From the NCBI RefSeq assembly GCF_900095305.1, contig NZ_FMDO01000057.1, positions 18,473 to 42,472 on the forward strand: a stretch of DNA of 24,000 bases. The letters are read 5' to 3'. Position numbers and translations under genes: made by a program. The notes beneath the pieces were generated by a model. It was not told the DNA's origin. It searched no databases and saw only the letters and a program-made list of their open reading frames with translations. The stretch comes from Proteiniborus sp. DW1 (GTDB taxonomy: Bacteria; Bacillota; Clostridia; Tissierellales; Proteiniboraceae). Numbering within the stretch: position 1 is the first letter of the stretch; each line of letters begins with the position of its first letter. Shown here piece by piece: positions 13,757 through 15,209 of the stretch.

Positions 13757-13914
13757 TCAGCTAATAATTTTTCTCCTTATATCGTATTGAATTTCATTAT
13801 CCTTTATAGCTTTCTTTAAAGACAATACTTCTTCATTTTTTGCTAAGAGCAATAATAGAATTACGGTACTATAAATTACAAATAATAATAATAATAAAAT
13901 ACGTTTTTTCCCAT
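13757..13914 (-). CDS. small single-pass membrane protein ORF requiring a -1 shift (or 1-nt indel) in an A6 tract at codons 3-4
   Basis: SD AAGGGAG (13921-13927) is followed 6 nt later by ATG 13914. The zero frame gives MGKNVFYYYYYL* (stop 13876-13878). The -1 frame from CGT 13903 is open to TGA 13757 and reads RILLLLLFVIYSTVILLLLLAKNEEVLSLKKAIKDNEIQYDIRRKIIS. Confidence 0.3.
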
Positions 13915-13953
13915 ACCCATCTCCCTTATTACTTCTTAAAACTCTGCAACAAT

Positions 13954-13976
13954 GTTATGCAACGGTGCTAACTCAT
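13954..13976. repeat. left arm of 23-bp inverted repeat (GTTATGCAACGGTGCTAACTCAT)
   Basis: It is the reverse complement of 14732-14754 at 21 of 23 positions, read directly from the sequence. Confidence 0.85.
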
Positions 13977-14040
13977 CTCCAATAGTTTAATCTAATAAGA
14001 TCAATTTTTACTTGTACATATAATGTCAACTAATATAATT

Positions 14041-14355
14041 TTAGCAGTTCATTAGTTTTATTATTTCTTCTATACTATCTGCCTGAGAATCATATTCTGC
14101 TATTATATTAACTTTTCGTGAACCACATTTTACACATTGATGTACTATCTGAATCCCTTTTTTGGATGAATTCTTAATGCCTATTGGCTTCATTAAAGCC
14201 ATACACATGCTTTGTCTATCTCCAGGCTTATTATCTACATGTTTAGAATATAAACAAAATGGACAATGATTTCTGTAACTACCGTTTTTTAATGGCAAGA
14301 CAACTTGTCCGCAATTTTCACAAATAAACCCTTTGTTTTCTTGTTCTCTACTCAA
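14041..14355 (-). CDS. RNHCP-domain zinc-ribbon protein
   Basis: 104 aa. Contains CENCG...YRNHCPFC...HQCVKCG, i.e. the literal RNHCP motif plus CxxC pairs. TTG start with SD GAGGGG 8 nt upstream. Confidence 0.85.
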   Translation of the reverse strand: MSREQENKGFICENCGQVVLPLKNGSYRNHCPFCLYSKHVDNKPGDRQSMCMALMKPIGIKNSSKKGIQIVHQCVKCGSRKVNIIAEYDSQADSIEEIIKLMNC

Positions 14356-14731
14356 AATAGCTTCCCCTCTCTTGATTTATTTGCTAAATCAAGAAATGGG
14401 TTCCGTTTTATTCTTTAATTTAGGCTTGAATGAACAAGTGACAAATTCACCGCCATTCCTTTAGGGTTAGCGATTACTTCCAGTTCCAGCTTCATTAAGG
14501 CATTTTTCATCCTTAAATCCGAACCATGATTAACTTTGTCTTACTTTGTATTAATCACTGTAAGGCGGGTGGGGCCCACCTTCCACTGGTATGTGTAGTT
14601 TCATTCTCACTAACATTGGCGTTCGTCCCCAATTAGCTTTGAGTAAAGAATAATACTTTGTTGCTCAAGTTTTCACTTCCTTCTTTCTGTCACAAGATAT
14701 CAAAAAATTGACCCCATAAACACTCTTAGAA
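14356..14731 (-). ncRNA. long structured 5' leader / candidate cis-regulatory RNA of unknown class
   Basis: This is a visibly GC-enriched island in AT-rich DNA. Hairpins (plus coordinates) lie at 14610-14636, 14562-14582 (AAGGUGGG-CCCCA-CCCGCCUU), 14526-14558, 14495-14516, 14428-14458 and 14364-14400. Several contain G.U pairs that exist only in minus sense. No long ORF is present. Confidence 0.45.
14364..14400 (-). promoter_or_regulatory. SD-sequestering hairpin immediately upstream of the RNHCP start
   Basis: In minus sense: CCCAUU-UCUUGAUUUA-GCAA-UAAAUCAAGA-GAGGGG. A 10-bp perfect stem is extended by CCC:GGG plus U.G and U-A pairs, so the GAGGGG SD is base-paired. No U-tract follows, so this is not a terminator. 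Confidence 0.55.
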
Positions 14732-14754
14732 ATGAGTTAGTACTGTTGCATAAC
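14732..14754. repeat. right arm of 23-bp inverted repeat (ATGAGTTAGTACTGTTGCATAAC)
   Basis: Partner of 13954-13976. It ends 9 nt from the stop of the TIM-barrel gene fragment. Confidence 0.85.
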
Positions 14755-14763
14755 GCTCCGTAT

Positions 14764-15010
14764 TTACACAGGCTCTGTACTATTATCTTTTCGTATTTCA
14801 TTCATACTTTCGTAAGGAGCATGTATATTTTCTATTTCTACCCCAGATTTTCTAGCTAGGCCAGGTAATAATTCTTTTTCTCCATTTATATCTCTTAAAC
14901 TCATCTCCCCACCAAAGCATGACACAATCAAATCCAGCTTCTCTTATTAAGCTAAATCTCTTTTTGCTTTCTATTGCATATCCAAACCTATAATCTAGCC
15001 CCGTTTTCAT
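14764..15010 (-). pseudogene. 5' fragment (frameshifted, truncated) of a xylose-isomerase-like TIM-barrel sugar phosphate isomerase/epimerase gene
   Basis: SD GAGGGAG plus ATG 15010 opens MKTGLDYRFGYAIESKKRFSLIREAGFDCVMLWWGDEFKR. A +1 shift near 14895 is needed to continue DINGEKELLPGLARKSGVEIENIHAPYESMNEIRKDNSTEPV*. Only ~85 of the expected ~270 residues are present. The family call is from memory. Confidence 0.5.
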
Positions 15011-15155
15011 AGTCTCCCTCTATTTTTTCTTTTTTCATTCCGCCATAGGATGCGGTGGTCAATTTTTATGGGATTTTATATAACATCATTCTTTGTGATT
15101 TTGAGATTTTTTTACTTTTCTGGGTTGCAACTTCTTTTAAAATTTACCATCTTTA

Positions 15156-15164
15156 TGGTATAAT
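15156..15164 (+). promoter_or_regulatory. extended -10 promoter element TGGTATAAT
   Basis: A perfect TGnTATAAT lies ~45 nt upstream of the ATG at 15210. The -35 is weak (TTTAAA at 17-nt spacing). Confidence 0.5.
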
Positions 15165-15209
15165 GTCAAGTATATGATATTATATATAAATATGGAAAGA
15201 TGGTGAAAA

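Follow-up and report, generated by a model that had tools for sequence, protein, structure and literature searches.

In attenuation of the erm and cat type, a ribosome on a short leader open reading frame (ORF) remodels the pairing that hides the Shine-Dalgarno (SD) sequence or the start codon of the regulated gene. Mimicry of rRNA by messenger RNA (mRNA) underlies the autogenous control of ribosomal proteins, and in the str operon uS7 represses only the coupled translation of rpsL-rpsG (PMC10931766). Here we analyze a stretch of 24 kb from Proteiniborus sp. DW1 (contig NZ_FMDO01000057.1, hereafter the window), and within it the structured leader (14344-14680, on the minus strand, like all the leader features given below) of a gene coding for an RNHCP zinc-ribbon protein. 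The core of this leader copies, in both sequence and secondary structure, the lower 3' major-domain core of 16S rRNA, that is, the three-way junction of helices h28, h29, and h43 together with the h29/h30/h41/h42 four-way junction. Taken together, the two copied junctions are the binding platform of the primary assembly protein uS7, whose site on 16S rRNA is made up of precisely these two junctions (PMC13004024). Neither the literature searched (on RNHCP, rRNA-mimic leaders, and 16S-like elements) nor Rfam holds a description of this leader RNA or a family dedicated to it. The leader points to a ribosome-linked control of the RNHCP family.

A 16S rRNA-like core in the RNHCP leader

The 16S rRNA-like core spans 168 nt (14433..14600) and is a miniature of h28, h29, a stub of h30, a stub of h41, h42, and h43. 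A scan of metagenome contigs with a pattern from the leader (see below) also matched two genuine 16S rRNA genes (L135 and L162; 940 and 854 bits in Rfam), and because of this cross-match to real 16S genes a direct comparison with 16S rRNA was made. When only 14330-14670 (about 340 nt) was scanned, the core matched the Rfam model of bacterial small-subunit (SSU) rRNA (SSU_rRNA_bacteria, RF00177) with 57.4 bits (gathering score 50; E 5.6e-16) over model positions 919-1379, where two local deletions take out 274 and 33 positions of the model. In the consensus-structure line of this alignment h28, h29, h30, h41, h42, and h43 are all aligned to paired leader columns. Rfam scans of the whole window at the gathering threshold and of 13900-15200 at E <= 10 gave nothing relevant, and the SSU match is absent from these 24-kb and 1.3-kb scans presumably because of speed filters. 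Other leaders were also similar to SSU models, with 54.1 and 48.3 bits (L007), 48 bits (L021), or 59.8 bits (L076, to the microsporidial SSU model). A profile hidden Markov model (HMM) of the leader, run with nhmmer against the 16S rRNA of Escherichia coli, matched positions 1171-1383 (E 3.8e-15), and matched a spliced 16S rRNA, in which 905-955 had been joined to 1225-1420, with an E of 4.8e-16.

The correspondence can be followed helix by helix. Inner P2 is h28. P3, formed by CCAGU (14585..14589) and ACUGG (14480..14484), provides the 5' and 3' strands of h29, to which it is aligned by the covariance model (CM), and its 3' strand lies inside AUGAAGCUGGAACUGGAAGUAAUCG, which matches AUGAAGUCGGAAUCGCUAGUAAUCG of 16S rRNA. 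P4 (14562..14582, AAGGUGG...CCGCCUU), also CM-aligned, is the h30 stub and caps the deletion that runs from distal h30 through h40. P5 (14529..14555) is the base of h41, aligning to GGCGCAUACAAA...AAAGUGCGUC of 16S rRNA, P6 (14495..14516) is h42, again CM-aligned, and P7 (14449..14474) is h43, followed by GGUGAAU as in 16S rRNA. Among the strands that make up the junctions, this GGUGAAU and AGUAAUCG are identical in both molecules, and ACAGUGG, GUUCGGAUU, and AUGAAGCUGGAAC of the leader correspond to ACAAUGG, GUCCGGAUU, and AUGAAGUCGGAAU of 16S rRNA. More than 100 loci in different phyla retain the deletion boundaries and the compensatory changes. Two family-specific helices, P1 and outer P2, clamp the core, and their blocks GGGGACGAnGCC, CAGUGAG, AAGCCUG, and AACGGAACCC are conserved as strongly as the core itself and have no detectable counterpart in 16S rRNA.

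The initial annotation of this stretch had proposed a candidate new riboswitch or cis-regulatory RNA that matched no known class, and had regarded a significant Rfam match as the mark of a known family. The lack of a match holds for riboswitch classes, but the SSU rRNA model recognizes the core provided that the scan is limited to a short stretch. Since that significant match is to rRNA and to no known regulatory family, the element is reclassified by it rather than rendered known.

Structure and conservation of the leader

The same annotation was right in describing the leader as richer in GC than its surroundings and as structured in the sense of the mRNA. The G+C content is 0.39-0.40 at 14400-14700 against 0.22-0.30 in neighboring intergenic DNA, and the minus strand of 14340-14760 has a minimum free energy (MFE) of -106.9 kcal/mol (z = -2.98), a stability reached by none of 100 dinucleotide shuffles, compared with a z of -0.99 for the plus strand. 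An alignment of the regions upstream of RNHCP genes in relatives, which had been suggested as a check, revealed both conservation and covariation. This bears out the claim that a conserved cis-regulatory RNA of minus sense keeps the SD of the TTG-initiated RNHCP gene occluded by its structure. The MAFFT alignment (A2) contains 37 leaders, with a mean column identity of 59% and 51 invariant columns; the leader searches relied on profile HMMs. Its RNAalifold consensus comprises 53 pairs, 43 of them with compensatory double changes, and with the addition of a helix at the start codon (P0, see below) the fold reaches 64 pairs, distributed over 10 helices; both partners change in 51 of these pairs. 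Standard pairs are formed by 91.6% of the cells, compared to 33-48% when the partners are slid by 1-3 columns, and the covariation score of 0.525, versus 0.229 for shuffles, was equaled by none of 500. The same helices came out of an independent scan for mutual information in 81 sequences.

P1 pairs UGGGGACG (14624..14631), which contains an invariant GGGG, with CGGAACCC (14398..14405), located within the invariant AACGGAACCC block. Three of its pairs are G-C in 37/37 leaders and others vary in a compensatory manner (columns 30/311: AU 20, UA 6, GC 4, CG 3; columns 36/304: CG 29, UA 7). Outer P2, a family-specific extension of the h28-like helix, joins UUAGUGAGAAUGA (14601..14613) to 14420..14432, within GUUCAUUCAAGCCUAA, and has compensatory changes in 9 of its 11 pairs. 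Inside the 16S-like core, covariation is found in 5/5 pairs of P3, 6/7 of P4 (98.5% of cells paired), 5/6 of P5, 6/6 of P6 (99.1% of cells paired), and 4/6 of P7. In the 12 leaders tested, this consensus fold lies 4-25 kcal/mol above the nearest-neighbor MFE, which is consistent with a need for tertiary or protein stabilization. In some leaders there are insertions of 50-180 nt, which seem to be located at the tips of P5 (h41) and P7 (h43) (L008:1903-2513, L054:2096-2509, L069:2102-2508, and L006, in the P5 loop). If they do sit at these tips, in helices that are shortened with respect to 16S rRNA, the constraint would seem to be limited to the junction core.

Six hairpins had been proposed from the window alone. 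Four of them, at 14562-14582 (P4), 14526-14558 (P5), 14495-14516 (P6), and 14364-14400 (the SD hairpin, see below), are conserved helices. The other two, 14610-14636 and 14428-14458, received no covariation support and were discarded as local alternatives, the conserved fold having the long-range P1 and P2 and P7 in their place. A decayed coding fragment was also ruled out, given that the stretch is non-coding in every locus compared and that the substitutions in the helices are compensatory.

Linkage of the leader to RNHCP genes

Conservation was assessed on 81 RNHCP loci, namely the window and 80 fetched loci, with one genome per species. Used as a single query, the leader of the window gave significant matches (E down to 2e-80) in 45 of the 81 loci, directly ahead of the RNHCP start, and the profile of 37 leaders raised this number to 49. 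The leader-bearing loci belong to at least eight phyla: Bacillota, Chloroflexota, WOR-3, Alphaproteobacteria, Actinomycetota, Planctomycetota, Nitrospirota, and Chlamydiota, the last one on a plasmid. In a blastn search against plasmids, leader and ORF together matched this plasmid of Protochlamydia naegleriophila with 69% identity (E 2e-45).

The linkage was also evaluated blind to the gene, scanning metagenome contigs with a 24-nt pattern taken from the most conserved block, which on the fetched loci picks out 42 of the 49 known leaders, with no match elsewhere. This yielded 79 strong leader matches, of which 66 had RNHCP directly downstream, 10 ran off the contig end, and three were exceptions, so that RNHCP directly follows in 66 of the 69 assessable cases and the linkage is close to exclusive. 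The three exceptions are a disrupted locus (L137), a degraded partial leader copy (L144:5750-5911), and L193:1657-2793, the sole case found in which a full leader with its mini-ORF (see below) and SD hairpin is followed by an ORF for a class I methyltransferase (Methyltransf_32). The leader of L193 is also more 16S-like than most (CUACAAUGG, CAGUCCGGAU, GAAUCGCGUUCCC). The leader gave no match in the phage collection, and a pattern scan of viral contigs produced four matches, none of them real.

Individual loci presented some peculiarities. On the P. naegleriophila plasmid pPNK (L001:2975-3620) the leader is intact and the RNHCP ORF, apparently frameshifted near its 3' end, is not listed as a gene; this copy adjoins AbiEi/AbiEii toxin-antitoxin genes. 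In Viridibacillus soli, the complete leader is preceded, at a distance of about 600 nt, by another leader-like match that is partial (L075:1521-1621; E 2e-11, covering profile positions 56-146), and a molybdenum cofactor riboswitch (RF01055, 71 bits), probably unrelated, was found about 1 kb downstream of RNHCP in a Dehalococcoidia contig (L007:3857-3978). Beyond clade-level synteny, the only recurrent neighbor detected was a GNAT gene in 5-6 loci, and no conserved neighbors related to transport or biosynthesis were seen. The GNAT gene (Acetyltransf_3, with weak similarity to RimJ, RimL, SpeG, and PseH) is on the same strand upstream of the leader (L002:665-1186, L005:1402-1962, L008:1057-1623, L015:1523-2023, and L021:1516-2058), in Bacillota, WOR-3, and an unclassified bacterium, and ends 120-280 nt before the leader in four cases and about 1 kb before it in L002.

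The translation initiation region of RNHCP

The RNHCP ORF (14041-14355, minus strand) starts with TTG and codes for 104 aa (Pfam PF12647, E 1e-30), its product being 100% identical to a protein of Proteiniborus sp. DW1. A sequestering helix over its SD had been suggested in the initial annotation and is indeed present: in the hairpin at 14364..14400 (inverted repeat I20), 14364-14379 pairs with 14385-14400 (16 nt, 88% complementary), with the 5' arm containing the anti-SD that pairs with the GAGGGG SD. A hairpin occupies the position of the SD in all aligned leaders.

The stretch upstream of RNHCP had been regarded as non-coding in all frames, and it is true that it contains only ORFs of up to 36 aa. 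However, a conserved mini-ORF of 11 codons was overlooked (14633..14668; TTG, 10 further codons, and TAA, coding for MSNKVLFFTQS), as was the start-codon helix P0, and both are central to the likely mechanism. The mini-ORF is preceded by an SD-like sequence (GGAAGUGA, 14673..14680; GGAGG or GGAGUGA, 5-12 nt before the mini-ORF start, in relatives), with its own stop codon 2 nt ahead of the GGGG in P1. Equivalent mini-ORFs, defined by a GGAGG-like SD, an ATG, GTG, or TTG start, a length of 6-15 codons (mode 11-12), and a stop that begins 2-10 nt before the invariant GGGG of P1, are present in 72 of 95 distinct leaders, compared with only 6.5% for shuffled upstream sequences held to the same criteria. 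The stop codon doubles as the base of P1 in many loci (UAGGGG). The encoded peptides are unrelated, save for the last codons, which are constrained as the 5' strand of P0.

P0 is formed between UUCUUUACUCAA (14639..14650), corresponding to codons 7-10 of the mini-ORF, and UUGAGUAGAGAA (14344..14355), that is, the RNHCP start codon UUG and the next three codons. Its inner six pairs are conserved with covariation across the family (columns 14/364: AU 15, GC 14), and the column facing the first nucleotide of the start codon covaries with the use of AUG, UUG, or GUG (columns 19/359: UA 16, AU 7, CG 4). SD and start codon of RNHCP are thus both taken in by conserved, covarying structures, the SD hairpin and P0, which together with P1 make up a three-way junction that sets the RNHCP start next to the stop of the mini-ORF. 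No sigma-70 promoter was found between the inverted repeat flanking the unit (see below) and the mini-ORF, the nearest candidates being at 15141-15207, and a search for a -10 box at a fixed distance was negative.

The RNHCP protein family and the flanking inverted repeat

PF12647 matches more than 1,200 clusters in many phyla. The homologs are mostly stand-alone proteins of 100-130 aa, with identities of 55-79% across phyla and 32 invariant residues that include two Cys clusters. Fusions are rare (P0146 and P0231: a GIY-YIG nuclease domain with RNHCP, 206 aa, and RNHCP with a cytidylate-kinase-like/AAA_18 domain, 305 aa), and in P0206 a GNAT domain and RNHCP are part of one giant protein. Searches for RNHCP in PADLOC and PHROGs returned nothing informative.

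The whole unit of mini-ORF, leader, and RNHCP is bracketed in the window by an inverted repeat of 33 nt (85% complementary), with the upstream arm at 14722..14754, outside the conserved RNA, and the downstream arm at 13954..13986, 55 nt after the RNHCP stop codon. The repeat is lineage-specific, since equivalents of 27-30 nt are found only in L050/L128 and L005 (4 of 68 loci including the window). These equivalents share its outer ends (GTTATG...CATAAC) and show compensatory differences. The repeat may serve as a stem for RNA processing or mark where a mobilized cassette ends; no direct repeat of the kind left by a target-site duplication was seen flanking the arms. Upstream of it, two frameshifted ORF fragments, 52 and 55 aa long, lie on the minus strand at 14764-15010. 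Their similarity, short of the cut-off (E 0.0038), is to the N-terminal part of a TIM barrel of the xylose-isomerase kind (AP_endonuc_2, positions 2-60 of the 249 in the profile). They end 10 nt from the repeat, as if a gene had been cut short at the point where the RNHCP unit starts.

A model for the control of RNHCP translation

An rRNA copy tied almost exclusively to one gene family argues for protein-operated rRNA mimicry rather than metabolite sensing. The reading that we favor, and to which we would assign about even confidence, is that the RNHCP leader acts as a protein-operated, rRNA-mimic translational operator that gates the coupling between mini-ORF and RNHCP, with RNHCP itself as the most economical effector. 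Given that the last codons of the mini-ORF are the 5' strand of P0 and that its stop is at P1, a ribosome translating it would have to melt P0 and, upon reaching the stop codon, P1 as well. This would transiently expose the RNHCP start beside the terminating ribosome, so that the translation of RNHCP would be coupled to that of the mini-ORF. At times when few nascent 16S 3' domains are unoccupied, a protein that natively recognizes the 16S platform would bind the folded mimic, stabilizing P2, P1, and P0 and thereby blocking the coupling. By the logic of the known rRNA-mimic operators (PMC10931766), the simplest candidate for this protein would be RNHCP, acting as an autogenous repressor, and RNHCP would then be an unrecognized protein binding the head or 3' domain of 16S rRNA. 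Going one step further, and somewhat more tentatively, RNHCP proteins may form a widespread class that binds nascent 16S rRNA at the uS7 platform and takes part in head assembly, acts as a placeholder, or serves quality control. Their production would be under the control of the largest rRNA mimic yet found in an mRNA, a "mini 3' domain" that works as a decoy, senses whether unoccupied 16S 3' domains or free uS7 are available, and gates re-initiation from the mini-ORF across a folded insert of 280 nt.

Several observations weigh against this operator model. The SD hairpin looks constitutive, and an alternative pairing between the 3' strand of P1 and the spacer between SD and start, which might make up a switch in which it and P1 exclude each other, is strong in only about 23 of the 37 sequences, with a mean of -6.9 kcal/mol compared to -5.5 kcal/mol for shuffles. 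Leaders are missing from 32 of the 81 RNHCP genes, which lie directly behind another ORF, such as a TPR-methyltransferase gene in gut Alphaproteobacteria or argR in Oscillospiraceae, so that this control would be dispensable in some lineages, and the leader of L193 precedes a methyltransferase instead of RNHCP. As for the protein, no sequence homolog was found in the PDB and Foldseek gave no significant match of its AlphaFold model (pLDDT 81) to PDB structures, that is, these searches provided neither a solved nor a recognizable RNA-binding homolog, and the literature searched yielded neither a mention of the RNHCP (PF12647) family nor a function for it. The identity of the effector is one that we infer, and since the mimic follows the uS7 site so closely, its reader might be uS7 and not RNHCP.

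This last point makes free uS7 a serious alternative, which we consider possible albeit clearly less probable than the operator model with RNHCP as its effector. Here the RNA and the coupling would be the same, with uS7 as the effector, possibly together with uS9, uS13, or uS19. The leader would serve as a decoy of the nascent 16S 3' domain that reports the balance between ribosomal proteins and rRNA, and RNHCP would be made only when new rRNA titrates uS7. The mimic reproduces both of the junctions that constitute the uS7 site and keeps the universal junction strands (ACAnUGG, GUYCGGAU, AUGAAG..GGAA, AGUAAUCG, and GGUGAAU), and uS7 is a known repressor of coupled translation through an mRNA site that resembles 16S rRNA (PMC10931766). 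However, in every established case the operon encodes its own binding protein, and uS7 is not encoded here, whereas the conserved blocks that do not resemble 16S rRNA (GGGGACGAnGCC, CAGUGAG, AAGCCUG, and AACGGAACCC) suggest an additional, RNHCP-specific determinant.

The mini-ORF brings to mind a leader-peptide attenuator of the erm/cat type, in which pausing or slow termination on it, under translation stress or an antibiotic, would hold P0 and P1 open and induce RNHCP, with no protein sensor and with the rRNA-like domain as a structural spacer or as a decoy binding a ligand or antibiotic. Its conserved, SD-preceded position, the pairing of its last codons with the downstream start codon, and a stop that abuts or overlaps P1 would all fit. 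Nevertheless, erm/cat leaders need specific stalling peptides and the peptide is unconserved here, and a 16S core of about 170 nt, conserved in sequence and pairing across eight phyla, would be left unexplained. The retained parts of 16S rRNA also exclude h31, h34, and h44, which are the main antibiotic-binding sites of the 30S subunit. We therefore regard this explanation as improbable.

Even less likely is the small-molecule or metal riboswitch that the initial annotation had put forward, with an expression platform that sequesters the SD. The Cys/His-rich nature of the regulated protein would agree with a metal ligand, and a large, highly conserved, covarying 5' leader with an occluded SD is a feature that fits the other hypotheses alike. 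The idea sits poorly with a conserved core that copies a protein-binding platform of rRNA, with the absence of transport or biosynthesis genes among conserved neighbors, and with Rfam scans that reported no riboswitch family even at E <= 10. Riboswitch classes usually control several genes of a pathway, whereas the gene-blind search tied this element to a single gene family, with one methyltransferase exception.

Finally, a decayed 16S gene fragment, or a mobile-cassette RNA bounded by the 33-nt inverted repeat, in either case devoid of a regulatory role, could account for the significant SSU match, for the bracketing repeat with a truncated TIM-barrel gene 10 nt away, and for the copies on a Chlamydiota plasmid, yet it is the hardest explanation to credit: deletion boundaries and compensatory changes (51/64 pairs) recur in over 100 loci from different phyla, the position is fixed and SD and start codon are built into the fold, the repeat is confined to 4/68 loci with no visible target-site duplication, no transposase, and a single copy in the window, and, as regards an rRNA gene or pseudogene, only model positions 919-1379 match, with 307 deleted, in an element flanked by a mini-ORF and a protein gene. 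The material analyzed showed neither a scatter of RNHCP-less copies within single genomes nor a lack of purifying selection on the paired positions, either of which would have favored this explanation.

Comparison with known systems

The leader provides a new regulatory layout, in which a mini-ORF is followed by an rRNA mimic and by a start codon that pairs with the 3' end of that mini-ORF, and the first concrete functional hypothesis for RNHCP (PF12647), namely binding of the 16S 3'-domain core. The two-junction sub-domain is predicted to fold autonomously and to bind uS7, which would make it a natural minimal model of 30S head nucleation. It also calls for caution in annotation, since such leaders exceed the Rfam SSU threshold or are missed or mislabeled depending on the length scanned.

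The closest known system is the uS7 operator between rpsL and rpsG in the str operon of E. coli. There too an mRNA site resembling the uS7 region of 16S rRNA stands between an upstream frame and the regulated start, and repression affects coupled translation (PMC10931766). The str site is short, has limited 16S similarity, and regulates the gene of uS7 itself, whereas the RNHCP leader extends over about 170 nt with six 16S helices and both junctions, passes the Rfam SSU threshold, has an 11-codon mini-ORF as its upstream frame, and regulates an uncharacterized zinc-ribbon protein. Other rRNA-mimic leaders of ribosomal proteins (uS8/spc, uS15, uL1, bL20, and others) likewise imitate an rRNA site, in 5' or intercistronic position, that overlaps the translation initiation region. 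Their autogenous feedback is established, while for RNHCP it is only proposed. They mimic one helix or one junction and are usually restricted to a phylum and to ribosomal protein operons; here a whole sub-domain is copied, in at least eight phyla, in front of a protein not known as ribosomal.

In the coupling of rpmI-rplT by the long-range pseudoknot of bL20, long-range pairing closes the downstream start, upstream translation opens it, and the bound protein modulates the process, of which the opening and modulation would be the parts proposed by analogy for RNHCP. The upstream frame in our case is a non-conserved mini-peptide, the long-range helix pairs the start codon directly, and the mimic is of 16S and not 23S rRNA. 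Compared with the erm/cat attenuators, there is no conserved stalling peptide, and a large rRNA replica stands in place of two or three simple hairpins. With bacterial SSU rRNA itself (RF00177) the leader has in common h28, h29, h42, h43, and the bases of h30 and h41, in sequence as well as in pairing. It differs in that only 168 nt align, the 274 and 33 deleted model positions being capped by loops, in being the leader of an mRNA and not part of an rRNA operon, and in having the extra conserved helices P0, P1, and outer P2. The principle of rRNA mimicry is already established, and what sets this leader apart from the known mimics is its scale, its phylogenetic breadth, its layout, and the nature of the regulated gene.

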